A stretch of DNA of 64,000 nucleotides from the NCBI GenBank assembly GCA_944345705.1, contig CALVML010000006.1:2202-66201 (forward strand), written 5' to 3'. Source of the stretch: an uncultured Clostridia bacterium. GTDB taxonomy: Bacteria > Bacillota > Clostridia > Christensenellales > UBA1242. The translations under genes and the position numbers were made by a program. Positions 4,344-64,000 of this stretch are shown here, piece by piece. Within the stretch, counting starts at the first letter, position 1. Every line of letters starts with the position of its first letter. The notes beneath the pieces were generated by a model. That model was not told the origin of the DNA and did not search any database. It worked only from the letters and a program-made list of their open reading frames with translations.

Positions 4344-4394
4344 TAAGTAGTTGACAAAACTTTATTTATGAGTTAAAATTTTATAGGATAATAT

Positions 4395-5513
4395 ATGAAA
4401 AATAGTGAATATGTTTTTGCAGTTGATATTGGCTCGTCAAAAATTCGCACAATGGTGGCGGGTAAAGGGCTTAATAACACCTTCAATATCAAGGGCTTCA
4501 AAGAAATTGAATATGATGGGTTTTATGAAGGGCGATTTTTAAATCAAGATAAGATTTCCCTTATTTTCGAGCAGATTATCGATGAGTTTGATATAAGAGT
4601 AGGCAGGGACATAGATAAGGTCTACATAAGTGTTCCTAGTGAGTTTTCATCAGTACATAAAACTGAAGTATCCATCAATTTTGGTGACAGACGAAAGGTT
4701 AAAAAACAGGATATCGACTCTCTTTATTATATGGCGAGTGAAAAAGGCAAGCGTGCTGACAGTGAGATAGTCAGCGTAAATGCAAACAGCTTTATCCTAG
4801 ACGATGGTCGCACAACCCTTGATCCGATAGGTGAAAGTGCGGTATCTATAATTGCTAAATTATCAATCATATATGGCGACAAGAAGTTTATCGATCTTTT
4901 TAATGGCATAGTTGCTTCTCTTGGCTTTGAAGCAATAGAGTATATCTCATCGCCTTTATCGCAGTGCCTATTTTTGCTTCCTAGCGAAAAAAGAGAAGAT
5001 CTTGCACTCCTTATTGATATTGGCGACCTTACATCATCTATCGCTTTTGTACAAGGCGATGGACTCTACGCGCTTTCAAGTTTTTCGCGCGGTGGCGGTT
5101 TTATTACAAATGACCTAAGTCAAGCCTTTGACCTATCTATGAGCGAAGCGGATAGACTTAAAAGACAAGTTGTGCTTTCGTTAAAAGGCAAGCCGACCGA
5201 TACCTATGAGCTTTTACTTGATAATGGTCAAACTATCAAGATCAGCCAAAATGCTTGCAACGAAGTTGTAGGCTATAGAATTGACGAGATGGCAGAGGTT
5301 ATCAGCAAGTGTATTAAGCTTAATACTAGGCAGTTTTCATCATATCTTCCTGTGATTTTGACAGGCTCAGGACTTTGTTTGCTTAAAGGCGGGCGAGATT
5401 ATCTTGCTAAGTGCCTTGGCAGAAATATTGAATATGGCAAGCCTGATTTGCCTGGCAAAGAAAAGCCAGAACTTGCAAGTATACTATCGCTTGTAAATAG
5501 CGCACTTGATTAG
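4395..5513 (+). CDS. ftsA: Cell division protein FtsA (actin-like ATPase)
   Basis: Actin-fold phosphate motifs VFAVDIGSSKIR and LLIDIGDLTSSIAFV; immediately upstream of ftsZ. Confidence 0.8.
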   Translation: MKNSEYVFAVDIGSSKIRTMVAGKGLNNTFNIKGFKEIEYDGFYEGRFLNQDKISLIFEQIIDEFDIRVGRDIDKVYISVPSEFSSVHKTEVSINFGDRRKVKKQDIDSLYYMASEKGKRADSEIVSVNANSFILDDGRTTLDPIGESAVSIIAKLSIIYGDKKFIDLFNGIVASLGFEAIEYISSPLSQCLFLLPSEKREDLALLIDIGDLTSSIAFVQGDGLYALSSFSRGGGFITNDLSQAFDLSMSEADRLKRQVVLSLKGKPTDTYELLLDNGQTIKISQNACNEVVGYRIDEMAEVISKCIKLNTRQFSSYLPVILTGSGLCLLKGGRDYLAKCLGRNIEYGKPDLPGKEKPELASILSLVNSALD

Positions 5514-5734
5514 TAAAGTGGCTACAAAAATCAATAAAAAGAAAAATTCGACAAAATTTTCACTCAATATATTGATTTTTTGTCTTATAGATGTTATACT
5601 ACAAATGCATAAATATTCATTTTTATTGCTTGAAATGTGAATTTATACATTTTTTCAAAAATTTTTATAAATTTGATTGCAAATTTATTCAAAACATATT
5701 ACAATATGTATGAAAAATATTCAAGGAGAACATT

Positions 5735-6931
5735 ATGGACGATTTTAAAAGAACTTCTATTGCAAAAATTAAGGTTATCGGTGTTGGCGGTGGCGGAAAC
5801 AACGCTGTCAATAGAATGATAGAAGCAGGCGTAAGCTCAGCTGAATTTGTTGCAGTAAACACTGATCAACAGACTTTGCTTGTAAGCAAGGCTGAAACAA
5901 GATTGCAGATTGGCGAGCGTTTGACTGGTGGTCTTGGCGCTGGTGCTAGACCAGAAGTTGGTCAAAAGGCTGCAGAAGAGAGTAAATCATCGATCACTGA
6001 AGTGCTAAAAGGTACAAACCTTGTATTTATCACTGCCGGCATGGGCGGTGGTACAGGTACAGGCGCCGCTCCAGTAATCGCACAGATTGCAAAGGAACTT
6101 GGAATTCTTACAATAGCAGTCATTACAAAGCCTTTCAATTTTGAAGGACAGCAGAGAGCAAAAAATGCTGAAGAAGGCGTTGAAAGACTTCGCAAATATG
6201 TAGATGCACTTGTTGTAATTCCAAATGAAAAATTGCTTGAAATCGTTCCTAAGAAAACTCCACTCAAAGAGTCATTTAGATTTGCTGATGATGTTTTAAG
6301 ACAGGGCGTTCAAGGGATTAGCGATCTTATTGTATATCCTGGACTTATCAATCTTGACTTTGCCGATGTTACAACTATTATGAAAGATAAGGGACTCGCT
6401 CACATGGGTATTGGTTATGGCAAGGGTGATAATAAAGCACTTGATGCGGTAAAACAGGCGGTTGCAAGTCCACTACTTGAAACTACAATCGAAGGCGCAA
6501 CAGGACTTTTGATCAATATCAAAGGTGGTAACGACCTTACTCAAGACGATTTAAGTGAAGCCGCTGCACTTGTAAGAGAAGTAGTTGACGACAGCTGTAA
6601 CATAATTCTCGGTACAAGCATTGATGAGAATATGCATGACGAAGTTGAAATCACTTTGATTGCTACAGGCTTCCAAAATGGTGAAGAAAAGAAGGATGAC
6701 GCGCGAAACAGCGAAATGGAAAACGCAAGATCTATAGGTAATATGGGACAAAGCCAGCCTTTCTCTGCAAGAAGCATGTTCTCAAATTATATGCAGAAGG
6801 AAAAGGAAGAGGAAAGTGCAAGACCTAATGTTCAGGTTAAAGAGTCTGACAACTTCTCATCTTCTAGAGTTGAAGTTAAATCATCTGATGTTCCACCATG
6901 GATTGAAAAGTTAAGAAGAAATAAGAAATAA
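5735..6931 (+). CDS. ftsZ: Cell division GTPase FtsZ
   Basis: [13 protein letters not shown] and the tubulin signature [15 protein letters not shown]; good RBS AAGGAGA. Confidence 0.98.
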
Positions 6932-8450: not shown

Positions 8451-9182
8451 ATGAATAAATTGATTTTTAAGTTGCGACTATTTTTATTTAACCTTTTTCA
8501 CAGAAAAAATTTGCTTGATGTAAAGAATATTGTATGCTATGTCTGTGGCAATGAAGAATTTTTGCCACCACTTGACAGCGATGAAGAAAATAGGCTCTTG
8601 ATATTAAAGGATAATGGCGATTTAAGTGCAACCGAAAAACTTATAGAGCATAATTTGCGTCTTGTTGCATATATTGCAAAGAAGTTTGAAAACAGTGGTA
8701 TAGAGTCAGAAGATTTGATTTCAACTGGCGCAATAGGACTTATAAAAGCAGTCAAGACCTTCAAAGTGGACAAGAATATTAGGCTTGCCACTTATGCTTC
8801 ACGCTGTATTGAAAATGAAATCTTGATGCAGATAAGAAAGACGGTAAAGATTAAAAATGATGTAAGTCTTGACAAACCGCTTTGTGATGATGGAGAGGGC
8901 AACCAACTTGTTCTATCAGATATCATACCAGCAGAAGAAGATGTTGAAACACAAGCGGTAGATAACCCTGCTGAAAAACAACTAATTGGACAACTTATAA
9001 ATAAACTGAATGCTAGAGAGCGAGAGATCATGGTACTTAGATATGGGCTTCTTGGTCATGAAGAATTGACACAGCGAGAGGTGGCAGTAAAACTTGGAAT
9101 AAGTCAAAGCTATATATCTCGTCTTGAAAAGAGAATCTTGCATGATATGAGAATAGAATTGCAAAAGCAATTGACGGTTTAA
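8451..9182 (+). CDS. sigE: Sporulation sigma factor SigE (pro-sigma-E)
   Basis: Pro-sequence followed by LPPLDSDEE..., region 2 NLRLVAYIAKKFENSGIESEDLISTGAIGLIKAV, ATYASRCIENEILM, and region 4.2 TQREVAVKLGISQSYISRLEKRIL. Confidence 0.93.
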   Translation: MNKLIFKLRLFLFNLFHRKNLLDVKNIVCYVCGNEEFLPPLDSDEENRLLILKDNGDLSATEKLIEHNLRLVAYIAKKFENSGIESEDLISTGAIGLIKAVKTFKVDKNIRLATYASRCIENEILMQIRKTVKIKNDVSLDKPLCDDGEGNQLVLSDIIPAEEDVETQAVDNPAEKQLIGQLINKLNAREREIMVLRYGLLGHEELTQREVAVKLGISQSYISRLEKRILHDMRIELQKQLTV

Positions 9183-9435
9183 GTTATTAATTTAAAGAAG
9201 ATTTATTAAAATAAATTTTAAAAAACATTCAATCTAATGCACTTAAAAAATACAAAATAAATATCAAATATAAGAAAATTAATAAAATTTAAGCAAAAAA
9301 CATCAAATTTTCAATAAAAAACATAAAATTCTGCAAAATTGTTTTAAAAACCCGCGAGTTTTATATTTTTTTGTCGAACTTGTATAGAAAGGATCTGCTT
9401 TGCGAAAGATATACCATAAAGGTAGGTCTAAGGCA

Positions 9436-10209
9436 ATGTCTTCCAAAGTTTGTATTTGTGGTGTTGATACTTCAATGCTTCCCAAGCTTAAAAACAGCGA
9501 TATGGTTGAGCTTATGGAAAGAATAAAGAAGGGGGATCGCAAGGCAAGAGATTATTTTGTAGTTGCAAACCTAAGGCTTGTACTTTCTGTCGTGCATCGT
9601 TTTGGTGGGCGTGGAGATAAGGCTGACGATATGTTTCAAGTAGGGTGTGTTGGACTTATGAAGGCAATCGACAACTTTGACGAGAAATTAAATGTCAAGT
9701 TCTCAACTTATGCGGTGCCAATGATTATTGGCGAGATACGCAGATACCTTCGCGACAACAATTCGGTACGAGTTTCAAGATCCCTTCGAGATGTTGCCTA
9801 CAAAGCCCTTCAAGCAAAGGAAGAACTTGCAAAGACAATGACGAGCGAACCGAGCATTGATGATATAGCGAGATTTACTCAGTTGCCAGCAAAGACCATC
9901 ACATTCGCACTTGATGCAATAAGCGATACCGTTTCATTAAGCGAACCTGTCTATAATGACGGCACTGATACCATACAACTGCTTGACCAGATAGCCGACA
10001 CAAAACACACTGATGAGAGTATGCATGAAAATATCTCGATAAAGGATGCAATAAAGTCATTATCATCGCGAGAGCGAGAAATACTTTTAATGCGCTATTA
10101 TGTCGGCAAAACTCAAACTGAGGTCAGTCAAGAGATAGGCATAAGTCAAGCACAAGTGTCAAGGCTTGAAAAAAATGCCCTAAAAGTAGTTAAAGATTTT
10201 TTGGTATAA
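9436..10209 (+). CDS. sigG: Forespore sigma factor SigG
   Basis: MSSKVCICGVDTSMLPKLKNSDMVELMERIKKGD... matches the SigG N-terminus. Regions 2 and 4.2 are present (TQTEVSQEIGISQAQVSRLEKNAL). ATG 9436 is chosen over the TTG at 9400. Gene order spoIIGA-sigE-sigG. Confidence 0.9.
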   Translation: MSSKVCICGVDTSMLPKLKNSDMVELMERIKKGDRKARDYFVVANLRLVLSVVHRFGGRGDKADDMFQVGCVGLMKAIDNFDEKLNVKFSTYAVPMIIGEIRRYLRDNNSVRVSRSLRDVAYKALQAKEELAKTMTSEPSIDDIARFTQLPAKTITFALDAISDTVSLSEPVYNDGTDTIQLLDQIADTKHTDESMHENISIKDAIKSLSSREREILLMRYYVGKTQTEVSQEIGISQAQVSRLEKNALKVVKDFLV

Positions 10210-36460: not shown

Positions 36461-38569
36461 TTAGTCATAATCAGGACCAGTGTCTGTAAGTCCGCCCCAA
36501 AGAGCGCCAGCATAGAATTTGTATCTGTTTGGAGTTGTGTCACTTTTGCGCTTTAACACCTTGAATGTTACTTCAAGATAGTCACAGCCTTCTGCGCCAC
36601 CAAACATATCTGAATTAAATCTTCCTGAAAGGTAGGTATAACCATCTGGAATTTGTTCGTTGTCAAGTTCACTTGAGCCTGGCTCTACAATTTCATAGTA
36701 TTTTCTTACATCCGTTGTTCCAACAAGTACGAGTGGGTCTTCGCTTATAAGCAGACTTGCTGAATATCCATTTTTACCTACGTCTGTCATAAGTACTCCA
36801 TCACCTATGTCTGTCTTGAAAGCTCCAAGTTCAATATCTACTCCGCCAAAGTATATTCCGCTGTAGTGGTCTTCTGGTGCACCTGTTTCTTCGGCATCCA
36901 TACTCTTGCCACCTGTTCCATCTGGCCAGTCCCAATATACATTTTCTTGATCCCACGGCCCATCATACACTCTTACCTGCATTGACTCAAGTACGGTGAG
37001 TGTGTCTGTCGAGTTGTTGTAATAGTTAAGGTCAACGATTATGTCAAGATATTCTTCTCCATAGACGCCTTCAGTTGTGCCGTCAAGGCCAGAGTCATAT
37101 TTGAGTGCAATTCCAACTCCGTCAACACTTACTTCTTCTTTAACCATAAATACGATCGATTGATATTCATAAGGTCTGATCTTGTCAGCGGAGTTCTCTT
37201 GTCCAGGTACTGCAAAACTAGAGTCAGAATATACATTGTTTGCAACGCCAGCATATTCCATTACTTCAGATGCAGGGAACCTTTGGTCAATTGTGACATC
37301 ACCGCCTTCATCACTGCCAATTGAAACTTCATTGCACACGTTTTTGATTATGTTTGCAACTGTGCCTTCATAATCTCTGCCAAGTTCAATGCTGTCTGGC
37401 GTAGTGTCAAATTCATAAGAATAAGAATATTCTCCGTTTTCATCTACTGTGACAACTTCGGTGACATTTTCATATCTAGAAAATATGTCCGCATTGTCGA
37501 CCACATCTTTGCCGATAATGTTGTCAAGCACCCACGCCTCAATCTTTTCAATTTGACGATCGGCAAGCCCTACGAAAGAGCCGAGAATTTGAAAGTTTTC
37601 TTTTGCTCTTTCAAGTGCAGAGTCTACATTGTCGTATCCTGTCACTTGCACATTAGGCGCGCCATCACTTGCAAAGGTGACGGTAACCTGTGCTGGCTCT
37701 AAGTCCACAGCATAGCAATAGATTGCATATTCAAGCGCCTTAACAAAGTCAGAATATTCTTGATCCTCAGTTTCGTAAGCGTTTTCAGTGCCGAGATAGT
37801 AATTCATAAGACTTTCAGATGTAGCAGTAAATGTATTGTTTGCATAATAAGTTCCTACTCTATCTTTAAAAACAGCTTCTCCTGATAGATCATAAGGGGC
37901 AAAAATAGTATCATTTATTATCACATTTGTTAGATATAATACATTCAAGGACATACCACTTTCATAGGTTAAGTATGCATTCGTATTAACTGTATCTTCT
38001 CCCACATTTAACCATTTCATATCATAAGGTGCACCCCAGTTCCAAGCAAGTGAGGTGTCCGCACCGACAATTTGATATTGTTGTGGCAGACTTTGTGATA
38101 TAGTCAAATCTTCATCGCTTATGCTACTATTATTGACAATTTGTCTACTTGTTACAGTGCCTTCAGTATTGACTTGATAACGCATACTATCATAAAGATA
38201 AGGTAAGTTGTTTTCAATATCAAAGTTTGGATTGTTGGATTGAACAATTGCTGGCGTATTATCTATATTTGTATCAGCGATTCCATAAATACTATATAGA
38301 TAATTAATAATTCCCCATGCATATTGGCCATAATAATCATTTGTACCACCATCAGTCGCACCAGAGCCTTCATCATAGTTATAGTTGTCAGGGCGATAAA
38401 GCACTTTTGTGCCGTAAAGACTTGATGATGTGATGGTTTCAGGATCACTTTCTTCAAAGTCATCAAGTTCAGCAAATTCATCACAACCTGAAAGTAATGC
38501 AAGTGCAGGGAATATGCACAGCATCAATAGACAGATTATTCTAAAGATAACAGTTTTTTTCTTTTTCAT
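36461..38569 (-). CDS. Large lipoprotein of unknown function (702 aa)
   Basis: Signal peptide with lipobox ALALLSGC. Acidic, Tyr/Asn/Asp-rich extracellular domain. Confidence 0.7.
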   Translation of the reverse strand: MKKKKTVIFRIICLLMLCIFPALALLSGCDEFAELDDFEESDPETITSSSLYGTKVLYRPDNYNYDEGSGATDGGTNDYYGQYAWGIINYLYSIYGIADTNIDNTPAIVQSNNPNFDIENNLPYLYDSMRYQVNTEGTVTSRQIVNNSSISDEDLTISQSLPQQYQIVGADTSLAWNWGAPYDMKWLNVGEDTVNTNAYLTYESGMSLNVLYLTNVIINDTIFAPYDLSGEAVFKDRVGTYYANNTFTATSESLMNYYLGTENAYETEDQEYSDFVKALEYAIYCYAVDLEPAQVTVTFASDGAPNVQVTGYDNVDSALERAKENFQILGSFVGLADRQIEKIEAWVLDNIIGKDVVDNADIFSRYENVTEVVTVDENGEYSYSYEFDTTPDSIELGRDYEGTVANIIKNVCNEVSIGSDEGGDVTIDQRFPASEVMEYAGVANNVYSDSSFAVPGQENSADKIRPYEYQSIVFMVKEEVSVDGVGIALKYDSGLDGTTEGVYGEEYLDIIVDLNYYNNSTDTLTVLESMQVRVYDGPWDQENVYWDWPDGTGGKSMDAEETGAPEDHYSGIYFGGVDIELGAFKTDIGDGVLMTDVGKNGYSASLLISEDPLVLVGTTDVRKYYEIVEPGSSELDNEQIPDGYTYLSGRFNSDMFGGAEGCDYLEVTFKVLKRKSDTTPNRYKFYAGALWGGLTDTGPDYD

Positions 38570-43258: not shown

Positions 43259-43299
43259 TAAGGATATAACAAGGACAAAACTTAAATTACAATTTACAA

Positions 43300-43500
43300 A
43301 AATTCAGTGAAAATTTCATATAATATCTAGTCAGAATTTTTAAAAAAATCTAGTAAAATTTCAAGGAAAGTCTACCAAGTTTTAAATAAGAAATTGGCTC
43401 AGATTTTCAATTTGACTTTGCTCACTTAAATATAGAAATTTGTCAGATTTTAATTTATGTTTGGCTAGTTTTTAATAAGATAATTAGCCGTTTTTTCATA
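43300..43500 (+). repeat. Iteron-like array: about 8 degenerate direct repeats at roughly 21-22-bp spacing
   Basis: Recurrent (C)TAG/CAG-N-(A/T)TTTT(C/A)A cores at about 43309, 43335, 43355, 43377, 43402, 43445, 43466 and 43489. Confidence 0.5.
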
Positions 43501-44060
43501 AAAGCCTTATCAAGACTAATAAATTTATTTTTTCGAAATTAAGCAAACATAATTTAAAAATTTAAAACAGCATAGTTATGTTTTCATAACAATGTTATAT
43601 TTTTAGTTATTATTACCGAAAGAGAGTAGCTAAGTAACTTTTTCGAGCGCAAACTATTGCTTGTTTTCTTGTAGTTTGGTAATTCTTTGATATCTATTTG
43701 ACTTTACATAAAATCAAATTAAAACTAGCATAGTTATTAAAACATAATTATGCTAATTTTTAGATATGATTACTTTGATCTTTAAGTGCTTTAAGTATAT
43801 CTTTGCATGTATTTATTGTGAGAATATGATATTGTATTTTTAAGTAATCATAGATAATAATGCAGAAAAAAAATATCATTTGCTTTAATGTGCCGAGATT
43901 TTGAATATTTTGTGAAGCCGATCATGCATACTAATTCTGTTTTTTATTTTATCAAGTGTAGTTGAAAACTTACATAGTTATAAAAACATGACTATGTATA
44001 TCATTATCATCATCATTAAATGATTTTATAAACAATTTTAAAGCGTTGGAGGGTTAAATC

Positions 44061-44178
44061 GAAGTAAAACTTGCAAACTTATTTTGAAAAATATAGAGTT
44101 GAGAGAATTTATGAATTTAGTTTTTGACTCTACACAAAACTGATTTAAAACTTACATAGTTATGAAAACATAACTATG
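44061..44178 (+). repeat. About 118-bp direct repeat, copy 1
   Basis: GAAGTAAAACTTGCAAACTTATTTTGAAAAATATAGAGTTGAGAGAATTTATGAATTTAGTTTTTGACTC... ending in the palindrome. Near-identical copy at 44386-44502. Confidence 0.85.
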
Positions 44179-44385
44179 CTAGCTTTTAGTTATACTATGT
44201 TTTTTAGTTATGATTTCCGCAAGAGAGTGGTTAAGCCACTTTCTCGAGCGCAAGCTATTAACTGTTTTTGCTGGATAGTTATTAAAACATAACTATGTAA
44301 TATTATTAAATTTAATCTTTTAATGCACGAAATTTAATCTTTATTAAGCAAATTTGAAACGTTTTTTTGGTAGGGGGGGGGAACT

Positions 44386-44502
44386 GAAGTAAGCCCTGCA
44401 AACTTATTTTGAAAAATATGGAGTTGAGAGAATTTAAGAATTTAGTTTTTGACTTTACATAAAATCGATTAAAAGTAGCATAGTTATGAAAACATAACTA
44501 TG
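44386..44502 (+). repeat. About 118-bp direct repeat, copy 2 (preceded by a G9 tract at 44373-44381)
   Basis: GAAGTAAGCCCTGCAAACTTATTTTGAAAAATATGGAGTTGAGAGAATTTAAGAATTTAGTTTTTGACTT... ending in the palindrome. Confidence 0.85.
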
Positions 44503-44639
44503 TTACTTTTTTTATTTAGATATTTTGTTTTTAGTAATTTTGATGTAAGGTTTATCTATGGCAGTTAGTATGTAAAATTTCAAAAAAAGATATTGTTCGT
44601 ATAATATATTTGCTTTTTAATATGGATCTTTATTAAATT

Positions 44640-45018
44640 TATATTATCGGAAGCCGAACTTGCTTGCAAGGGTGAGGCTGATGGTTATACATACTATGTG
44701 ATGAGTATGCGTTAGCATACAAATTCGCCAGAATTTATAAAATTTTATGATAATAAAATTTTAACATCACTTAGTTTATATTATCGGAAGCCGAACTTGC
44801 TTGCAAGAGTGAGGCTGATGGTTATACATACTGTGTGATAAGTATGCGTTAGCATACAAATTCGCCAGAATTTATAAAATTTTATGATAATAAAATTTTA
44901 ACATCACATTGTTTATATTATCTGAAGTCGAACCAAGCGTGACGAAGTCGCATTTGAGTGAGACTGATGGTTATACATACTGTGATGGACATAATTTATT
45001 GTGTTTTTGCGTTTAGTA
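44640..45018 (+). repeat. Tandem array of a 137-bp structured repeat (2 full units + 1 divergent truncated unit)
   Basis: Units start with TATATTATCGG at 44640 and 44777 and with TATATTATCTG at 44914. Each unit holds hairpins CTTGC-TT-GCAAG, GTATGC-GTTA-GCATAC and TAAAATTTTAT..ATAAAATTTTA, within an ACTATGTGATG/CATCAC.TAGT closing repeat. Confidence 0.9.
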
Positions 45019-45066
45019 ATAACTTATAAGCCTTTCATAAATGTAGACATCGACATCAGTTTTCAT
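45013..45066 (-). CDS. Candidate 17-aa micro-ORF (MKTDVDVYIYERLISYY)
   Basis: ATG at 45066 lies 5 nt after AAAGGAGA, stop TAA at 45013-45015. Divergent from the XRE gene. No conservation evidence is available. Confidence 0.25.
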   Translation of the reverse strand: MKTDVDVYIYERLISYY

Positions 45067-45120
45067 ATTCATCTCCTTTTTGTTATTACCTATATCTAAT
45101 TATACATATTTTAAATATTT

Positions 45121-46268: not shown

Positions 46269-46838
46269 ACTATGTGATGTTAAAATTTTATGATCATAAA
46301 ATTTTAATAAATTCTGGCGAATTTGTATGCTAACGCATACTTATCACATAGTATGTATAACCATCAGCCTCACCCTTGCAAGCAAGTTCGGCTTCCGATA
46401 ATATAAACAATGTGATGTTAAAATTTTACTATCATAAAATTTAATAAATTCTGGCGAATTTGTGTGCTAATGCACACTCATCACATAGTATGTATAACCA
46501 TCAGTCTCACTCAAATGCGATTTTATCGCGCTTGGTTCGGCTTCCGATAATATAAACAATGTGATGTTAAAATTTTACTATCATAAAATTTTATAAATTC
46601 TGTCGAATTTGTGTGCTAACGCATACTCATCACATAGTATGTATAACCATCAGCCTCACCCTTGCAAGCAAGTTCGGCTTCCGATAATATAGACTATATG
46701 ATGTTAAAATTTAAGCAAGTTAAATTTTAAATTTGCTAAACGCAAAAACACAATAAATTGTGTTCATCACAGTATGTATGACCATCAGTCTCACTCAAAT
46801 GCGATTTCATCGCGCTTGGTTCGACTTCCGATAATATA
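46269..46838 (-). repeat. Inverted-orientation tandem array of the same structured repeat (4 units, 137-149 bp)
   Basis: On the + strand: units at 46269-46405, 46406-46554, 46555-46691 and 46692-46838 (divergent). They are the reverse complement of the 44.64-kb units. Preceded by a G8 tract at 46251-46258. Confidence 0.9.
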
Positions 46839-46909
46839 AAAACTGTATAAGTATATAAAAAATATGATCTTATCATTTTTTTATTATAATCTTAACTGAA
46901 AACATTTAT

Positions 46910-48553
46910 TTATAGGTTGTTTTCGTGGTCAGGGGGCAGTTGTTTTATGCTCTGTCTTTCTTTTTGACTTAAAATTTCGGCGAGCTGGCTTTCGAGTTTT
47001 TGCTGAGATTTTGCTTCTTTTTGGTCTTCATTTTTTAAAAGTGTGTGGATATGTTTGATTTCTTCATCAAGTTTTTGATGGTATGTTTGATAGAATAAAG
47101 ATACTTCTTGTTCGCTAAAATTATCCATTAAAAAGTTTTCAGTGAAGGCGTCGATCAACTTCTCAAGTATTTGCATTTGATAAGATTTTTGATAATCTGG
47201 CGACCTTTCTACTTCATCAGATGCAAGTTTGACTTTTGTGTCGATAAGATCGTTAAGAATTGCATTTTTATCGAAGGACTTTTCTATGGTTTCTATAAAG
47301 CTGTCATACTTGCATAGGGCTTTGAGATTTTCATCGATGGCAGGACCGTTTTTCTTTGATACAGCCGTGCGTCTTCTATAAAAACTAGCGTGAGTGTCAA
47401 TTTTTATGTCTTTTTTGTCGCCCTCTAGATATATGCAATATTTTCCGTTATCGAAGAGTAAAAAATCATATTTATTATTATTTGTGTTTAAAAAATATTG
47501 TCCTATTGCATGAGAGGGTGAGAATTCATCTTGAAAGGCTTGAAATTTGTTTTGTGTAATAAAATCAAGTGTGGCAGAATCTGCTGTAACAAACTGCAAT
47601 TTGTTGTTTACTATCTCCACATAACCATAGTCGCAGGTGAATATTATTTTAGAAAAAGTCTTGTTCAATAAGTTATGAGTTTGAAAAAGAATTTTATCTT
47701 CCAGTTGCGCTAATTGTATTTGGACATTTTGATCAAAAAACTGTGTTCTTTTATGGGTTTCAATGTCTTTCGCTCTCTTTTCTTTATCTTTTTGTTTTGC
47801 TTCTTGCAAAAATTTATCAACATATTTGCTGTATAAATCTTCGAGCAACTCATTTTCTTCCTGCAGTTGACTTTCGCTTAAAGTGTTTCGAAGTTTTTGA
47901 TAGTAGGCTTGAAAGGCCTCTTTTTGTGCATACTGCGATCTTGTAGGATATGGAGTAGTTGTGAATTCTGCTAAAGACAAAGCAAATTTTTGTCTTATAT
48001 ATTTAGTTATAGTATCTTTATTATATCCTGTATGTTCCTTTAAGCACTGCAGGGTGTACTTTTTCGATTGTAGATAGCTTTTTGCCTTATTATAGATATT
48101 CTCGTATTGATCTTTTGAAACTTGCCCAGTAGAATTTTTGTCTATATAATTAACTTGGCTTGCGTTTAGGTTTTGTAGAAATAACCAGCCTGTTCTATCT
48201 ATGCAGATCGACAAATTTCGTTCTTTATTTTTAAATAATTCAAGATAAAAATCGTTGTCGACGCTTCTTATAAAAAGCTTGCCTGTCTTTTTAAAACTAT
48301 CTAAATCGTCATCAATGACATATCGATTAAAGCAATCAAGATAAGCTTGGCTTGTTCTTTCATAAAATGAGATATTATCCAAAGAAAAAGGTGTTGTTTC
48401 AAGCATAATCACTCCATGCTCGCTATAGTCAAGTAAAATAGAGTTTGAAAAAGGTTGATATATTCCGTATGGATAGTAAACTTTGTCTTGTTTATAACAA
48501 AGTTTGCCTTTTAATAATTCCGCCAGCTTTTTTTCAGTTTTGCTTTGTGCCAT
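46910..48553 (-). CDS. Hypothetical 547-aa protein, paralog B of a tandem pair
   Basis: Shares colinear blocks with the upstream gene (YYQKLRNTLSESQLQEENELLEDLY vs FYEKLRATLSQEELDRENNLLEKSY; FTCDYGYVEIVNN vs YTCNYGYAYINN; LLFDNGKYCIYLEGD vs LLYSNDEYCIYIADR). No known catalytic motif recognised. Confidence 0.7.
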   Translation of the reverse strand: MAQSKTEKKLAELLKGKLCYKQDKVYYPYGIYQPFSNSILLDYSEHGVIMLETTPFSLDNISFYERTSQAYLDCFNRYVIDDDLDSFKKTGKLFIRSVDNDFYLELFKNKERNLSICIDRTGWLFLQNLNASQVNYIDKNSTGQVSKDQYENIYNKAKSYLQSKKYTLQCLKEHTGYNKDTITKYIRQKFALSLAEFTTTPYPTRSQYAQKEAFQAYYQKLRNTLSESQLQEENELLEDLYSKYVDKFLQEAKQKDKEKRAKDIETHKRTQFFDQNVQIQLAQLEDKILFQTHNLLNKTFSKIIFTCDYGYVEIVNNKLQFVTADSATLDFITQNKFQAFQDEFSPSHAIGQYFLNTNNNKYDFLLFDNGKYCIYLEGDKKDIKIDTHASFYRRRTAVSKKNGPAIDENLKALCKYDSFIETIEKSFDKNAILNDLIDTKVKLASDEVERSPDYQKSYQMQILEKLIDAFTENFLMDNFSEQEVSLFYQTYHQKLDEEIKHIHTLLKNEDQKEAKSQQKLESQLAEILSQKERQSIKQLPPDHENNL

Positions 48554-48562
48554 ATTTCTCCT

Positions 48563-50170
48563 TTAAAGTTCATTTTTATGATATATTTCTTGCTCAAAGT
48601 TTTTATTATAAATTGTCTTAGCCTTTTCTTCAAGGGCTTGTTCGTCAAATGTTTGTTTATGATTTTTATTTTGAGAGTAGGTTTTGATAGATTTTTCAAT
48701 TTCTTGATTTAATTCTTTATAAAAATTTTCTATCTCATCATTTTGGCAGTATTGTGTTAAATATTCAGAGATAAAAGATTGGGTTAATAGTTTATATTGT
48801 TGTTTGTCATAGTCATTTAAGTTGTCGATATCAATTATAAAACCGAGTTCGCGCATTTTGTCTTTAATAAGTTGCTCTTTCAATTTTTCAATAATTGAAG
48901 CGGTATTATATTTCTTTTTTAAGTTTTCTTTAAGTGTATATATAAAATAGTTAAAACTTGTAAGTTGTTGTAATGTTTGGTCATCAAGTTGTGTGTCGTT
49001 CACTGCGCCATCGTTTTTAAGATATGAATCAAAAAAATGTTTTTTTGTAGAACAACAGATACTTAAAAAAGGATTTTCATTCTTTCTATCAGCGATATAT
49101 ATGCAATACTCATCATTGCTATATAGCAGTATAGTGCAGTTGTCAGAATAACACGACTTGTATCTTTCACCTACGGCATCAAGTTGCGAAAATTCACTCT
49201 CTATTGAATGCCATTTTTTTATTTCTTTATCATCAAGATTAGATTTACTTGATGTTTCAAGACAGAGCCCTAAGTTATTTATATATGCATAGCCATAATT
49301 ACAAGTATACAATGGATATACAATGTCATTAAAAATATCGTTTTCTCTTATGCAGGGTTTTTCGTCAAAATCTTGATAGGTATCCATTTGGCTTAAATAT
49401 TCAAGTTGATTTTTTCTTGATTCTTGTAATCTTTCTTTTAAATTTTCAATTGTATCTGTTTGTTCCTTTTGTTTTAAAGTAATTTCTGCTTTATATGACT
49501 TTTCTAATAAATTGTTTTCCCTATCAAGTTCTTCTTGAGAGAGAGTTGCACGCAATTTTTCATAAAAGATTTTTATTAGTTCAAATTTTTTTTCATCTTT
49601 ATAGACAGTATCAAACTTTATGTTGGCAAGCAAATTAGCGTATGCTTCTCGCGTAGAGACTAAAAGATTTTCTTTTGTATAGCCAATAAATTTCTTTATT
49701 TCATCTAAAGCTGAAACTTGAGACTTTAAACAGTTTTGAAACATATCAACAGCATCTTTTGTTCTTAAAGAATTTGTTAAAAACTCTTGTTTTTCTTCTT
49801 TTGTAGCATCTTTAATTTCAAACTCTTGTCGATTTACAAGTTTAATATGTCCAAATTGAGATAATACAAAAGAGATTTTATTTTGATAGTTATATAATTC
49901 ATAGAAATACATTTTTGCATAATTGCCTGAGGTTATAATATTATCGCTTTTTTCAAATTCGTCAATTATGTCATCTATAACTATTCCATCAAATTGTTTA
50001 ATATAATACTCATCATCTCTCAAATATGTAAAAATAGAAAAGATCATATCTGATACTTTAATAACTCCATATTTATTTGCTTCCACGATGATTCGGTAAG
50101 ACTCGTCTGACATTATCATTTTACCCAAACTTGCATCTATTAGCTTCTGTTCATATTTTCCTATTGCCAT
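48563..50170 (-). CDS. Hypothetical 535-aa protein, paralog A of a tandem pair
   Basis: See paralog B. The gap to the downstream gene is 9 nt (operon). RBS AGAGG. Very AT-rich coding sequence. Confidence 0.7.
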   Translation of the reverse strand: MAIGKYEQKLIDASLGKMIMSDESYRIIVEANKYGVIKVSDMIFSIFTYLRDDEYYIKQFDGIVIDDIIDEFEKSDNIITSGNYAKMYFYELYNYQNKISFVLSQFGHIKLVNRQEFEIKDATKEEKQEFLTNSLRTKDAVDMFQNCLKSQVSALDEIKKFIGYTKENLLVSTREAYANLLANIKFDTVYKDEKKFELIKIFYEKLRATLSQEELDRENNLLEKSYKAEITLKQKEQTDTIENLKERLQESRKNQLEYLSQMDTYQDFDEKPCIRENDIFNDIVYPLYTCNYGYAYINNLGLCLETSSKSNLDDKEIKKWHSIESEFSQLDAVGERYKSCYSDNCTILLYSNDEYCIYIADRKNENPFLSICCSTKKHFFDSYLKNDGAVNDTQLDDQTLQQLTSFNYFIYTLKENLKKKYNTASIIEKLKEQLIKDKMRELGFIIDIDNLNDYDKQQYKLLTQSFISEYLTQYCQNDEIENFYKELNQEIEKSIKTYSQNKNHKQTFDEQALEEKAKTIYNKNFEQEIYHKNEL

Positions 50171-54667: not shown

Positions 54668-55555
54668 CTATTCTTTTTCTCTTTCCAATTTTGCAACTTT
54701 TTCTTGATACAGGGCTTGAAATTCAGGTTCGTTTCTTACGTTTTTGTCAACAAAACGCAAAGCTTTCTTTGGGTCCTGTGCCTTGTTAAAAACCATTACT
54801 ATAAAATCGTAATCAAGCTTATCCTCATAAGGAGTAAATTCAAAAAGATTATCTCCGCCTCTTTCATAAGCAAAGTCAAAAAAATCTGGATCATATCGCA
54901 AATCATCTGATGCAAATTGAAATACCCTAAAGTCCTTATCAATTGCAGCCTTCATTATTTCCTCGTCATTGCTATAATATCTGCCAAGTTGAGCAGATAT
55001 TGTTTCGTTCCAAAACTCAGGATTACGATGAGAAAAATCAGGACTTTCTTCAACAAGTTGCATATAATTTGGATCTTTTAATATCTTCAATAAATCTTCT
55101 CTATCTACTTGTGGTTCTGTCCAGGCATTCAGCATGGCATCTCTGTATGAATGTCTACTGCAAATACCACAACCACGTTTAGCATTTATAAATTTAGAAA
55201 AATCTGGATCTTTTTGTAATTCATCTGATGCATATTGAAGCATTGTAGGGTCTTTCTTAACTGCAACCAGCATGATATTCTTGTTATTTTTTATATTATC
55301 TGATGCATATTTAACTATTGTAGGGTCTTTACAGGCTGCAGCCTGCATTACTTCCTTGTCATCGTTATAATATTTGAAAAGTTGAACAGATATTCTTTCA
55401 TTCCAAAACTCAGCATTCCTATGTGAAAGATCAGGACTTTCTTCAACGAGTTGCGTATAATTTGGATTTTGTAATATTTGTAATAATCTTTCTCTTTCCA
55501 TTTTTGGTTGTGTTAATGCCGTCATCATAGCATTTCTATATGTCAGTTTGCTCAT
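54668..55555 (-). CDS. DUF4116 repeat protein with internal duplication
   Basis: Repeats of the type ...KDPTIVKYASDNIKNNKNIMLVAVKKDPTMLQYASDELQKDPDF... The two halves of the protein are clearly homologous. Confidence 0.65.
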   Translation of the reverse strand: MSKLTYRNAMMTALTQPKMERERLLQILQNPNYTQLVEESPDLSHRNAEFWNERISVQLFKYYNDDKEVMQAAACKDPTIVKYASDNIKNNKNIMLVAVKKDPTMLQYASDELQKDPDFSKFINAKRGCGICSRHSYRDAMLNAWTEPQVDREDLLKILKDPNYMQLVEESPDFSHRNPEFWNETISAQLGRYYSNDEEIMKAAIDKDFRVFQFASDDLRYDPDFFDFAYERGGDNLFEFTPYEDKLDYDFIVMVFNKAQDPKKALRFVDKNVRNEPEFQALYQEKVAKLEREKE

Positions 55556-60086: not shown

Positions 60087-60140
60087 AATATTTCTGAATT
60101 ATTAAAAAGATTGTTTTTAAGAAACTTTTATCTAATAAAA

Positions 60141-60174
60141 GGCTTGCCTTGTGGCAAGCCCTTTCAATTTTTTT
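60141..60174 (+). terminator. Rho-independent terminator after ligA
   Basis: GGCTTGCC-TTGT-GGCAAGCC followed by CTTTCAATTTTTTT. Confidence 0.8.
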
Positions 60175-60255
60175 ATTATTTATGCATATATATGTAAGAT
60201 AATAACGCAAAAATATTAAAAATTCAAGTTGACATTAATTTATAGTTAAAATTAA

Positions 60256-60284
60256 TTGACTATTTTTGTAAAAAATGTTACAAT
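60256..60284 (+). promoter_or_regulatory. Promoter of the RiPP operon
   Basis: TTGACT (60256-60261), 17-nt spacer, extended -10 TGTTACAAT (60276-60284). Confidence 0.65.
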
Positions 60285-60332
60285 ATAATTGATAATTTAT
60301 GTAAATTAAATTATCTAGAAGGAGGAGGGAAA

Positions 60333-60437
60333 ATGAAAAAGGCAAAAAAAATCACTAGAATTAAAATCGACAATTTAATTGATAATAGTCGTTTTGCAAA
60401 AGGTGATGGTTGGTCTAAAACAGACAATGCTTATTGA
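60333..60437 (+). CDS. RiPP precursor peptide, streptide-like KxxxW family (34 aa)
   Basis: MKKAKKITRIKIDNLIDNSRFAKGDGWSKTDNAY. RBS GGAGGAGG lies 5 nt upstream. The stop overlaps the radical-SAM start. AKGDGW equals the streptide core motif. Below the ORF-track size cutoff. Confidence 0.75.
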   Translation: MKKAKKITRIKIDNLIDNSRFAKGDGWSKTDNAY

Positions 60438-61770
60438 TTTATATCAATTAAGAGAAGGCATCATAGTGCGCCTTGAATATTTTGGTGGAATGATAATAGA
60501 CATAGTTAATAATGCCTATTATCAAATACCAAAATATGACGCATTAGTTTTATTTTGCTTAAAATATGAAAATAATATCAATGTAATTATCAATGAAATA
60601 TTAACCAAATTAGACATAAAAAAAGAAACATTTGATTGCAATTTATATGAAAAAGAAAATTTCATAGTCAAAATAAGTCAAAAAAATAATATTCATCGTG
60701 ATAATTTAAACTTATATTTATATATTAAAGATATTTTAAATAACATTGAAAATATAAATCACTTATCAGCGCCTTTAAATATATCCATTTATCCTTCTTT
60801 TTCCTGTCAAGCAAATTGCAATTTTTGTTATGTTAAAAATTATTGCAAAGACGATCATAGAATCATGCAGTTTCATGTTTTAAAAAAACTTATAGACGAT
60901 ATTGAAAGATTACAAATACCTTATGTTTCAATTTTGGGTGGTGAACCACTTTTACTGCCATATATAGAAGAGTTATTAGATTATATGTCAAAGAAACGCA
61001 TTATTTTCAATATAACAACGAATGGTTGGTTGTTAAATGAAAAAGTTATGTATTATATAAAAAAATTTAAAAATATTAATTTGTCAATTTCTTTACAAAG
61101 TATTGATAATTATCATACATTAGCAACAAAACTTAATTATAAAGAGATAATAAACAATATAAAAAATACTAGAGGCAATTGCAGAATTAATACTGTATAC
61201 ATAAATCAAACTTTCGAACAATTAGAAAAACTTGTTGATTTTGTTTATAACGAGGGAATAAAAACCTTTACATTGGCACTATATAATAATGTTAAATTGA
61301 ATCCAAAAGAACAAAATAATAATCACATAAAATTTTTAAACGCAAAACAGCATTTAAATAAATACATTAAAAGTAAACACTACGATATTGACTTTCGTGC
61401 AGAAGGCTGTTTACAGTATTTATTTGAGCAAAAAGTCAAAATAATTCCAAAAACGGATATAGAAAAAATTTTTACAAAGTGTGAGGCAGGTAATTTAAAA
61501 CTTGAAATTATGCCTAACGGAGATACAATCGGTTGCATGGCACTAGATAATAATTTTTTTAAAAGTGGAAATATTTTTGATAACAAATTAGAGGATATAT
61601 GGAATCATGATGAGAAGTTAAATTTATTAAGAAACTCACTATGTAAAGTAAGCGAGTGTAAAAACTGTAAATATTATTCTTTCTGCAATGGTGGATGTAC
61701 TGCGCAAAGATTTTTAACGAATAAGAATTTTGAAAAAGTAAAGGATGGAAGATGTTTAAAGAAAGCATAA
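60427..61770 (+). CDS. Radical SAM/SPASM peptide maturase (KxxxW cyclic-peptide type)
   Basis: CxxxCxxC cluster SCQANCNFCY, ILGGEPLL, and a C-terminal SPASM motif CKNCKYYSFCNGGC plus upstream CEAG..GC. ATG 60427 is chosen because the track start at 60379 lies inside the precursor ORF in another frame. Confidence 0.85.
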   Translation: MLIDLYQLREGIIVRLEYFGGMIIDIVNNAYYQIPKYDALVLFCLKYENNINVIINEILTKLDIKKETFDCNLYEKENFIVKISQKNNIHRDNLNLYLYIKDILNNIENINHLSAPLNISIYPSFSCQANCNFCYVKNYCKDDHRIMQFHVLKKLIDDIERLQIPYVSILGGEPLLLPYIEELLDYMSKKRIIFNITTNGWLLNEKVMYYIKKFKNINLSISLQSIDNYHTLATKLNYKEIINNIKNTRGNCRINTVYINQTFEQLEKLVDFVYNEGIKTFTLALYNNVKLNPKEQNNNHIKFLNAKQHLNKYIKSKHYDIDFRAEGCLQYLFEQKVKIIPKTDIEKIFTKCEAGNLKLEIMPNGDTIGCMALDNNFFKSGNIFDNKLEDIWNHDEKLNLLRNSLCKVSECKNCKYYSFCNGGCTAQRFLTNKNFEKVKDGRCLKKA

Positions 61771-63449
61771 ATTTTGAAGAATATAAAAAATTCAAAGCAA
61801 AATTTGAGTGTTTTGTTTTAGATGAGCAGTGGAGATATTCTCTAATGTTTGATTGTTTTTTAAGTGACAAAGTGAGAAATGAGACAACTAGAATGATAGA
61901 TTTTTTTACTGCTAATCCAAGGCCTAGTGATGTTTCAAAATATTTAAATTATTTAAGAAAAGAAGGTTTAAATCTTTTATATGAAAGTCAAAAACAAAAA
62001 GATGTAAGGCATTCTTGGGCAGAAGTGAGAGAATCTTATGCGTATTATGGATTAATTGAAGTTATAACAGAGGGCTCTAGTTATAGTGAAAATTTAATAG
62101 GCGAATTACAAGAAATTTATGGCGATAAGTATTTAACTGTGTTATCGGAAATCGACAATTCATCTCCATCAAAACTTACCAATTTCTCACAAAATAGTAA
62201 TGTAAATTTGTTTGATAATAATGATACGGTAAATAAATATTTGCTATTAAAAAAATGGCAAGACGAGCAAAATATATATCATAATAAAAAATTATATCCT
62301 ATTTTTTCAAAGTATAGAGATGAATTTAAAAAAGAATATGTAGCACGATATGGTGAAGTTGAATGTAGTGCTAGAGAGATGCTAGTATTGTCAGATTTGA
62401 GAGAACAATCAATTTTGCCTATTGACACATTAGCAATTTGGATAGATATTGGACTCGGAAATGAGTTAACAACAGTTATAGGTGGAAAAAATTATGGACT
62501 TGCACTATTAAAACAACACGAGCTTAATATTCCTAATACTTGGACTTTAACTTTAAATTCAAACTTAGATGAAAATTTTATACAAAATTTACCTTCAAAA
62601 TTTAATTATGCAATTCGTAGTTCTGCAAACGGCGAAGATGGTCAAAAAAATTCATTTGCTGGAATGTTTGATACAATTTTAGATGTTAATAAAAGTGATA
62701 TTTTAAATGCTGTCAATAAGGTTAAATATTCTTGCCAAAATTCTCGTGTTGCAGCATATATACAAAAATTTAATCTTCAACAACCAGAAATGTCCATTGT
62801 AATTCAAGAATTTATTCCTGCAGATATTTCAGGGGTATGGCTTGGCAGGGAAGAAAATTCTGGTATACTCGAGTGGGTAAATGGCAGCGGAGATCAGCTA
62901 GTATCTGGCACAATAACGCCAACAACTGAAATGATAAATTATAAAGCTGATATAAATAGTTTAAAGATAAACGGAAAGTATGTTGGAGATATTTTATTAT
63001 CATATCAAAAGAAAGTGGGCAAAATTTGTGATTTTGAATTTTGTATCAAAGATGATATATTGTACATGTTACAATATCGCCCTGTAACAGAAATTATTAC
63101 ACAACAAAGTGAAAATGATAATAGTAAAGTCAACGGAACGCCTGCATCAAAGGGAGTTGTCGAAGGTGAAGTTTGCTTTTTAGAAGATGTAGATGATATT
63201 GATAAATTTAAACCAAATACCATCCTGTTGACATATTATACCGATCCTGACTGGACAGAGGCTTTAGTGAGAGCAAAAGCAATAGTGACAGCAGAGGGCG
63301 GATTTCTATGTCATACAGCTATTATTGCAAGGGAACTAGGTATTCCTTGCATTACAGGAATAGGAAAGAAAAATTTAAAAAAATTAGCGAAATGCAAACA
63401 AATTGTGGTTAACGGAAATACTGGTGGCATAAAAGAATTGCATAATTAA
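61752..63449 (+). CDS. PEP-utilising-enzyme family protein (PPDK_N ATP-grasp + C-terminal mobile His domain), putative peptide-modifying phosphotransferase
   Basis: VIGGKNYGLALL...IPNTW...AIRSSANGEDGQKNSFAGMFDT...SIVIQEFIPADISGVW...GSGDQLVSGTITP (PEP/pyruvate-binding ATP-grasp). GTPASKGVVEGEV...ILLTYYTDPDWTEALVRAKAIVTAEGGFLCHTAIIARELGIPCITG (swivelling His domain). Start overlaps the rSAM gene by 19 nt. Confidence 0.8.
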   Translation: MFKESINFEEYKKFKAKFECFVLDEQWRYSLMFDCFLSDKVRNETTRMIDFFTANPRPSDVSKYLNYLRKEGLNLLYESQKQKDVRHSWAEVRESYAYYGLIEVITEGSSYSENLIGELQEIYGDKYLTVLSEIDNSSPSKLTNFSQNSNVNLFDNNDTVNKYLLLKKWQDEQNIYHNKKLYPIFSKYRDEFKKEYVARYGEVECSAREMLVLSDLREQSILPIDTLAIWIDIGLGNELTTVIGGKNYGLALLKQHELNIPNTWTLTLNSNLDENFIQNLPSKFNYAIRSSANGEDGQKNSFAGMFDTILDVNKSDILNAVNKVKYSCQNSRVAAYIQKFNLQQPEMSIVIQEFIPADISGVWLGREENSGILEWVNGSGDQLVSGTITPTTEMINYKADINSLKINGKYVGDILLSYQKKVGKICDFEFCIKDDILYMLQYRPVTEIITQQSENDNSKVNGTPASKGVVEGEVCFLEDVDDIDKFKPNTILLTYYTDPDWTEALVRAKAIVTAEGGFLCHTAIIARELGIPCITGIGKKNLKKLAKCKQIVVNGNTGGIKELHN

Positions 63450-63472
63450 TAAAATAAGAATAGAATATAGAT

Positions 63473-63540
63473 AGGTAGCAAGTTAACATTTATTTTGACA
63501 GCACTTTTTAACCGATGCTACCTTTTTTTTGCTAATCAAT
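63473..63540 (+). terminator. Terminator of the RiPP operon
   Basis: AGGTAGCA...TGCTACCT followed by a T8 run. Confidence 0.6.
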
Positions 63541-63585
63541 TTTGTCGCAATTTATTTTTATTTGCACCCTATTAAAAACTTGGTA

Positions 63586-63615
63586 TTGACAATTCGCTGT
63601 TGTTGGTTTAAAATA
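63586..63615 (+). promoter_or_regulatory. Promoter of the downstream membrane protein gene
   Basis: TTGACA (63586-63591), 18-nt spacer, TAAAAT (63610-63615). Confidence 0.5.
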
Positions 63616-63643
63616 TGCAGTGTTATTACAAGGAGTTTTATTA

Positions 63644-64000
63644 TGCAGGACAAGAAAATTATGTTTGATTTTGAAAAGTTTGATCCAAAAACACAAAAAC
63701 TACTTAATCATTTTAAAGAAAAAGTTTCTTCTTTAGGAAACTATGAACTTTATTCTTTGTATAAAAAAACAACAAACAAGGTCTACAAGCTTGCTCAAAA
63801 TTTGCACTCACAATCTTTTAAGCAAAATGTCGGGTTTACTTTTTTCTTGACTTGTCCTGTTTCTATGGGGTTATCACTTGGTTTGCTTCCTGAAGGCACA
63901 ATTAAAAATGTCGTCTTTGGTTTGACTACGGTTGCCTATCTTGTGACTGGTTGTCTTACAGCATATCAATATAATAAATGCGAAAAAGCAAAAGAGAAAT
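63644..64000 (+). CDS. Hypothetical membrane protein, N-terminal fragment (runs off the window)
   Basis: ATG 63644 follows AAGGAG. The frame is open to the window end (119 codons). Two hydrophobic segments (VGFTFFLTCPVSMGLSLGLL, VVFGLTTVAYLVTGCL). Not in the ORF track because no stop is present. Confidence 0.5.

Follow-up and report, generated by a model that had tools for sequence, protein, structure and literature searches.

Sequence comparison confirms the 34-codon open reading frame (ORF) at 60333–60437 on the forward strand of the window, the whole 64 000-nucleotide stretch of DNA analysed here, as a genuine and conserved gene for the predicted precursor of a streptide-type RiPP with a Lys–Trp cross-link. 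Judged by its sequence, the precursor is a new and distant member of the streptide/KxxxW family. What is new is the operon type, in which a known kind of radical-SAM cyclase is encoded together with an uncharacterised enzyme resembling PEP synthase and rifampin phosphotransferase (RPH) in the place of the exporter. Streptide is the founding Lys–Trp cross-linked RiPP and, to our knowledge, work on it has been almost confined to streptococci under Rgg/SHP control. In the precursor StrA, Lys16 is joined to Trp20 within the sequence KGDGW by an enzyme that is strictly specific for both residues and requires the leader (PMC5491770; PMC9389541). A review from 2026 still gives the function of streptide as uncharacterised (PMC13361665).

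The ORF begins at an ATG, ends in a TGA codon (60435–60437) and encodes MKKAKKITRIKIDNLIDNSRFAKGDGWSKTDNAY, 34 residues exactly as translated in an earlier sequence-only reading of this DNA. The predicted leader comprises Met1–Phe21 (60333–60395) and the predicted core Ala22–Tyr34 (60396–60434), within which the macrocycle motif Lys23-Gly-Asp-Gly-Trp27 occupies 60399–60413 (Lys23 at 60399–60401 and Trp27 at 60411–60413). The earlier reading took Lys23 and Trp27 for the two ends of a KxxxW macrocycle in a precursor that adjoins its radical-SAM enzyme. This is borne out by the single family match of the precursor, NCBIfam TIGR04079 (KxxxW-cyclized peptide pheromone; E = 1.3e-5, at 25.2 bits under the curated cut-off of 35 bits), and by the adjacent gene, which encodes a full-length homologue of SuiB/StrB. 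It was also right that KGDGW is present in one copy only and that there is no Gly-Gly; a six-frame translation of the window contains one KGDGW, where 0.002 occurrences are expected from composition.

The surroundings of the ORF make it look like an expressed gene, with a promoter-like site of its own, a strong Shine–Dalgarno site and a terminator upstream. The Shine–Dalgarno site (AGGAGGAGGG) lies at 60320–60329 (+), with its AGGAGG core 7 nt 5′ of the ATG. A putative sigma-70-type promoter at 60256–60284 (+), consisting of TTGACT, a 17 nt spacer and TACAAT with an extended −10 TG, matches the consensus at 10 of 12 positions. The upstream gene ligA is followed at 60141–60160 (+) by an intrinsic terminator with an 8 bp stem containing six GC pairs and a subsequent T-run (−17.2 kcal/mol, z = −4.5), so that the operon would be transcriptionally isolated. 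RNA folding shows no significant structure at the junction of the peptide and radical-SAM genes, and an Rfam scan of the whole window returned no riboswitch or other RNA family, either near the operon or elsewhere.

Loci encoding relatives of the cyclase were gathered from genomes and metagenomes, and the DNA 5′ of each radical-SAM gene was read. A small ORF with K-x3-W, nearly always in the form F-x-KGDGW, is found in this position in all of the approximately 20 loci where this DNA is readable, which is the outcome expected of the homologous loci in the sequence-only reading, and such ORFs persist down to about 25–30% identity between the radical-SAM enzymes. The homologous precursors end in F/M-x-K-G-D-G-W, and nearly all of their genes are preceded by an AGGAGG-like site. 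Examples are MKKAKTITKIKIDNLIDNSRFSKGDGWPKTDNA in L001, MKKVAKRKLLDSCYFAKGDGW in L012, MKKITTIKKQSSAKVFSSCHFSKGDGW in L014 and L094, and MKKVKLAKTISCSRFGKGKQWKK in L007. In an alignment of 20 peptides Lys23, Gly24 and Trp27 are invariant and Phe21, Asp25 and Gly26 are at least 90% conserved. The L007 homologue carries KGKQW, and thus even the Asp of KGDGW is dispensable. Between the peptide genes of the window and L001 nine codons differ synonymously and four non-synonymously, and the sole protein change from Asp17 to Trp27 is A22S. The stop codons of the homologous genes are TGA, TAA or TAG at equivalent positions.

The tail that follows Trp27 (SKTDNAY) is kept among close relatives only. Many peptides finish at the Trp itself (L012, L014 and L094) or at Trp-Lys (L009, L011, L015 and L110), and the core has no conserved hydroxyl group in the 20-peptide alignment. 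Ser28, Thr30 and Tyr34, which had been put forward as hydroxyl acceptors alongside a second Lys in the tail, can therefore be ruled out as a conserved target of the third enzyme of the operon, which is itself conserved. A Cys two residues before the Phe is restricted to precursors linked to the PPDK-like enzyme, as opposed to those linked to an exporter; the window peptide has a Ser there. A different arrangement is seen in L113, a high-GC (60%) MAG, where a 183-residue ORF at 3225–3776 lies 5′ of a StrB-like radical-SAM gene and contains three repeats of VSEDVFDRAHFAKGDGWKTM, which makes it a multi-core streptide-like precursor.

The residue two positions before the Lys is a near-invariant Phe, replaced by Met in streptococci. 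The corresponding context in StrA, which we take to be SSSM/AKGDGW with the slash at the cut, fits the Lys16/Trp20 numbering and the published peptide names. The Phe thus aligns with the residue preceding the N-terminus of streptide, and by this analogy cleavage of the leader after Phe21, between Phe21 and Ala22, is plausible. The earlier statement that no obvious leader-cleavage motif is present is accordingly doubtful.

With the streptide systems (StrA/StrB/StrC of S. thermophilus, SuiA/SuiB of S. suis and AgaA/AgaB) the window locus shares a short leader-bearing precursor, the exact KGDGW sequence, the small-x-(F/M)-A/S context before it, a cyclase homologous to SuiB over its full length and the position of the peptide gene directly 5′ of the cyclase gene. 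It differs from them in having Phe rather than Met before the core and a Lys-rich rather than an acidic leader, and in that the scores of both peptide and cyclase fall under the family cut-offs. Furthermore, the third gene is of PEP-utiliser type instead of encoding the StrC exporter/protease, the Rgg/SHP quorum-sensing module is absent from the operon, and loci of this type are hosted by uncultured Clostridia, Bacilli and 'Tenericutes' of the gut rather than by streptococci.

The second gene (60427–61770, +) encodes a radical-SAM/SPASM peptide cyclase of 447 residues, a homologue of StrB/SuiB with the Pfam domains PF04055 and PF13186 and an N-terminal RRE-like region. Its CX3CX2C motif is formed by Cys127, Cys131 and Cys134, and this motif as well as the SPASM cysteines are invariant among the relatives compared. 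The protein scores best, at 155.3 bits, with TIGR04080 (KxxxW cyclic peptide radical SAM maturase), which misses the equivalog cut-off of 500; the next best is MftC (101 bits), and WgkB and PqqE reach 61 and 52 bits, respectively. The best match in the PDB is SuiB (PDB entry 5v1q; E = 6e-40), of which residues 24–457 align with residues 8–443 of the cyclase. This alignment runs end to end and covers the N-terminal peptide-binding region together with all cluster cysteines. Since the NCBIfam scores of precursor and cyclase both lie below the curated cut-offs, the locus belongs to a distant branch of the family and its cross-link could have another regiochemistry. In a neighbour-joining tree of the cyclases the grouping of the PPDK-linked loci, as one clade or as several, is not resolved.

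The exact start of the cyclase is predicted. An ATG at 60427 gives an overlap of 11 nt with the peptide ORF, while an alternative ATG at 60406 gives an overlap of 32 nt. Public gene calls begin the enzyme at 60406 (P0001, 454 residues), which is inside the core-coding region of the precursor. Homologues outside the clade of the window start 11–14 residues before a conserved RLEFFGG sequence, in agreement with the ATG at 60427, and in the clade of the window the ATG at 60406–60408 arises from the Asp-Gly codons (GAT GGN) of KGDGW itself. With either start the overlap is real. It is confined to the clade of the window (−8 to −37 nt), and at all other loci the two genes are separated by a gap of 41–78 nt. 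The peptide gene has a strong Shine–Dalgarno site and the radical-SAM start has none. Together with the overlap this suggests that translation of the enzyme is coupled to that of the peptide at a much lower level and not in a 1:1 ratio. Of the earlier proposal that the overlap with the maturase start enforces stoichiometric co-translation, the overlap itself (11 nt with the predicted start) stands and the stoichiometry does not, the overlap being clade-specific and the radical-SAM gene being devoid of a Shine–Dalgarno site.

The third gene (61752–63449, +) overlaps the radical-SAM gene by 19 nt and encodes a PEP-utiliser-type phosphotransferase-like enzyme of 565 residues. The chain consists of a novel all-helical N-domain (approximately residues 1–245), an ATP-grasp domain (PPDK_N; approximately 250–450) and a phospho-His swivel domain (approximately 460–562). 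The ATP-grasp domain (PF01326, E = 4.4e-30) has invariant RSSAxxED and QxRPxT motifs, and the swivel domain (PF00391, E = 1.4e-21) carries the catalytic His521; the segments GGFLCH521, Arg289–Asp296 and Gln441–Thr446 are invariant in 35 sequences of the family. The AF2 model has a pLDDT of 88.7, and its top Foldseek matches are PPDK (PDB entry 1kbl) and RPH (PDB entry 5hv3). The protein finishes at the swivel domain and has no C-terminal PEP/pyruvate TIM-barrel. It scores far under the cut-offs of all NCBIfam PPS models and reaches 113.6 bits with the rifampin phosphotransferase model NF041857, for which the cut-off is 999. The RPH alignment covers the ATP-grasp and swivel domains only, the rifampin-binding domain between them being absent. 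By these sequence matches the enzyme is a member of the PEP-utiliser superfamily that falls in none of its characterised families.

The first approximately 245 residues are predicted with a pLDDT of 90 to be entirely helical. Foldseek finds no significant PDB match for this N-domain, so the fold gives no functional hint. A word-index search with the N-domain alone gave fragments only and an exhaustive phmmer search was used instead. Its 64 matches among 1.84 billion representatives place the domain solely at the N-terminus of proteins of 545–640 residues with the same architecture; shorter matches look like fragments. A scan of genomes with a PPDK-like profile is dominated by ordinary PEP synthases, and the true members are those of L014–L017 only. 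The family comprises at least 170 clusters at 90% identity, and we know of no characterised member.

The family is also encountered beside unrelated radical-SAM clusters with Cys-rich peptides (L098, L100 and L016). In L098 (1–8400) the gene is accompanied by three radical-SAM genes, an aminotransferase, a YcaO protein and a 44-residue peptide ending in ECGGNYCSDVC. In L100 (4500–10600) the PPDK-like protein carries a fused NUDIX domain; next to it are encoded a 44-residue peptide ending in ACNNLDACGCTGNGNC, a radical-SAM enzyme, a phosphatase of the PP2C type and a kinase of the APH type. The L016 member (2400–6700) lies beside two radical-SAM/SPASM genes, while that of L096 has no radical-SAM neighbour at all. 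The role of the enzyme is therefore possibly not specific for the KGDGW core, which suggests that it is either general to radical-SAM peptide pathways or not directed at peptides.

Besides the window, 14 other distinct loci carry the pair of radical-SAM and PPDK-like genes (L001, L004, L006, L007, L009, L011–L015, L094, L106, L107 and L110), always with an overlap of 19–31 nt. Across these 15 loci, referred to as type B, the third enzyme has about 580 residues. Four distinct loci (L001, L004/L005, L006 and L007) have an M16 peptidase as the fourth gene, which in L001 lies at 9040–10116; the window has none. No exporter is found in the operons of the 15 type-B loci. In the window the StrC-type exporter/protease is absent 3′ of the cyclase and is replaced by the gene with PPDK_N and PEP-utilizers domains. 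In the exporter-type (type-A) KGDGW loci L108, L109, L111, L112 and L114, which are the five with readable downstream DNA, an ABC or MFS exporter follows directly after the radical-SAM gene, as in the classical str operon. The window operon is adjoined by no Rgg/SHP regulator, its neighbours being pcrA and ligA upstream and a putative membrane protein downstream. A probable terminator, AGGUAGCA...UGCUACCU followed by U8, closes the three-gene operon at 63473–63532 (+; −15.2 kcal/mol, z = −2.2).

The third enzyme resembles RPH, PEP synthase/PPDK and PigC/HapC in combining an ATP-grasp domain with a phospho-His swivel domain and in retaining the catalytic His and the ATP-site motifs. In RPH, PEP synthase/PPDK and PigC/HapC an oxygen atom of the third substrate receives the β-phosphate of ATP. 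Phenols are phosphorylated by relatives of PEP-utiliser type, and the prodigiosin ligases PigC and HapC activate an aldehyde oxygen. For the characterised relatives, the sites of phosphorylation are oxygen atoms in small molecules such as rifampin (PMC4844700; PMC12167813). The window enzyme differs from RPH and PPDK in that it has neither the PEP/pyruvate TIM-barrel nor the rifampin-binding domain, in the order of its domains, the putative acceptor domain being placed at the N-terminus, in the all-helical fold of this domain, which matches no solved structure, and in that it is encoded in RiPP operons. A full-text literature search of incomplete coverage found no paper that links RiPPs to an enzyme of PEP-utiliser or dikinase type, and PMC11851443 draws no such link. 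The PQQ and mycofactocin systems (PqqA/E/F and MftA/B/C/E) are similar in pairing a small peptide with a SPASM radical-SAM enzyme that forms a C–C bond, in having no dedicated exporter and, as far as some related loci are concerned, in the M16-type peptidase. They differ in that the window cyclase is distant from MftC and PqqE by the scores given above, that its substrate motif is that of streptide and that the operon has no downstream oxidase or cyclase genes.

Taken together, we consider it very likely that the ORF encodes the equivalent of StrA, that the SuiB-like cyclase makes a carbacycle between Lys23 and Trp27 and that the third enzyme then handles the product. The Lys-rich leader (approximately Met1–Phe21) would be bound by the adjacent radical-SAM/SPASM enzyme. 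By homology, the latter would take a hydrogen from Cβ of Lys23 and bond this residue to the indole of Trp27 (at C7), which closes K-G-D-G-W into a carbacycle of five residues and changes the mass by −2 Da. Leader-dependent binding and formation of the Lys23–Trp27 carbacycle are well supported by the analogy with streptide. From the gene order only, which is conserved and translationally coupled, we infer that the cross-linked product would pass to the third enzyme after the cyclase has acted. There, His521 would most likely be loaded with a phosphoryl group derived from ATP and hand it to an acceptor held by the N-domain. Our preferred guess for this acceptor is the cross-linked peptide, with phosphorylation or phospho-activation of an oxygen; the acceptor atom may be provided by a carboxylate, by an oxygen of the backbone or of a side chain, or by the Ser/Cys at the second position ahead of the Phe. 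Where it is encoded (four related loci), the M16 peptidase probably removes the leader, with the cut probably after Phe21.

In its most far-reaching form, the third enzyme may represent a new class of RiPP tailoring enzymes that phosphorylate or phospho-activate radical-SAM-cross-linked peptides by way of a swivelling phospho-histidine, that serve several unrelated families of radical-SAM peptides and that take the place of export in the streptide family. We put this forward tentatively, as possible and somewhat short of probable. In that case the pathway would end in a Lys–Trp macrocycle that is phosphorylated or cyclised further, or in an intracellular metabolite derived from the peptide. 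Should the enzyme act on the peptide, RiPP biosynthesis would gain a new enzyme class and possibly a new modification, and a function could be assigned to a family of 'hypothetical PEP/pyruvate-binding proteins' with no fewer than 64 clusters at 50% identity. Should it not, the finding is the correct call of a new distant family member. The streptide motif and its cyclase occur here in uncultured gut anaerobes, in which the exporter and regulator have been dropped, a phospho-His enzyme has been gained and an M16 peptidase is sometimes added.

Several other explanations can be set against this pathway. The ORF is very short and overlaps the radical-SAM start, as would suit a chance ORF or a leader uORF that merely controls expression of the radical-SAM gene. 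However, the amino-acid motif is kept through synonymous codon changes and exactly matches a substrate motif proven by experiment, with the low chance expectation given above, and the ORF is conserved also where the two genes do not overlap. Read-through of the TGA under genetic code 4 was considered as well and rejected: homologues terminate at the equivalent position with TAA or TAG, and the long housekeeping ORFs of the window are intact under code 11. The conserved F-x-KGDGW, the excess of synonymous changes and the equivalent stops together rule out a chance ORF, code-4 read-through and a mere uORF, and we regard the chance or uORF explanation as effectively refuted by the sequence comparison and extremely improbable. 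It is distinctly unlikely that the enzyme installs a cross-link other than that between Lys Cβ and Trp C7, as WgkB does for Lys and Trp in tryglysin, and so makes a new macrocycle on KGDGW. Such a difference would be in line with the low identity to SuiB (155 bits against the equivalog cut-off of 500) and with the different chemistry of related radical-SAM subfamilies (PMC9389541, PMC11851443), but the substrate motif is the same as that of streptide, SuiB aligns over its full length with all cluster cysteines present and the WgkB score is far lower at 61 bits.

The remaining alternatives concern the third enzyme. In place of a secreted signal like streptide, an intracellular small molecule or cofactor could be excised from the Lys–Trp peptide, in the way that SPASM enzymes and peptidases yield PQQ and mycofactocin, and the dikinase-like enzyme could act on the excised product. 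This would agree with the 15 type-B operons having no exporter, compared with an ABC or MFS exporter in the five exporter-type loci, with an M16 peptidase of the PqqF/PqqL family type in four distinct type-B loci, with a tail after the Trp that is variable or missing, and with the small-molecule targets of the known PEP-utiliser superfamily enzymes (PMC4844700; PMC12167813). Nevertheless, most type-B loci, including the window, have no M16 gene, exporters may be encoded elsewhere in the genome, and the further tailoring genes typical of cofactor pathways, such as oxidases, are absent. Moreover, the Gly-Asp-Gly within the ring is conserved as in streptide, the product of which is the peptide itself, and we consider a cofactor to be unlikely. 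Alternatively, precursor and cyclase could be streptide-like while the PPDK-like enzyme has no part in tailoring the peptide, simply accompanies radical-SAM clusters and serves in self-protection, regulation or metabolism, for example by inactivating the product through phosphorylation in the manner of RPH. The family accompanies several different radical-SAM clusters and in one case none, the core lacks a conserved hydroxyl and the closest characterised relatives include a resistance kinase. Against this, every type-B locus retains the tight overlap of 19–31 nt with the radical-SAM gene, over a range of about 30–40% identity, which is typical of a biosynthetic partner, and a role of this kind seems rather unlikely to us.

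Judging from base composition and from comparison with related genomes, the operon is a low-GC, strain-variable accessory insertion downstream of ligA. Its GC content is 27.7%, and 23–25% in its first part, compared with 34.5% for the window. The closest genome identified via LigA is L182, an uncultured Clostridia MAG in which LigA and PcrA are about 96% identical to those of the window. The operon is absent from L182, and the similarity breaks exactly at the ligA stop codon (window 60087–64000 versus L182 6460–7433). The organism of the window is a spore-former (SpoIVA), and the related loci come from MAGs of uncultured gut or faecal bacteria that bear the labels Clostridia, Lachnospiraceae, Bacilli and 'Tenericutes'. 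More distant relatives have small ORFs after ligA, with rpsL-rpsG-fusA beyond these.

A few further features of the window were observed. The gene after the operon (63643–64000, +) is preceded by a near-consensus promoter-like site at 63586–63614 and runs off the window; its product appears to be a membrane protein with hydrophobic stretches and has no Pfam match. A repeat-rich region of about 1.8 kb at 43260–45100 (and 46736–46876) contains no ORF of at least 40 residues and has no Rfam match. It comprises about six copies of a palindromic unit of approximately 30 nt, AAAACNNGCATAGTTATGAAAACATAACTATG, and two to three copies of a direct repeat of approximately 130 nt, TTATATTATCGGAAGCCGAACTTGCTTGCAAG..., with possibly one more near 46800, and is followed by two small XRE-type HTH ORFs. 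Three ORFs on the reverse strand, at 36461–38569, 46910–48553 and 48563–50170 (702, 547 and 535 residues, respectively), have no Pfam match at E <= 0.001. Between spoIVA and pcrA and on the opposite strand, 54668–55555 (−) encodes a 295-residue protein with two long internal repeats containing DUF4116.
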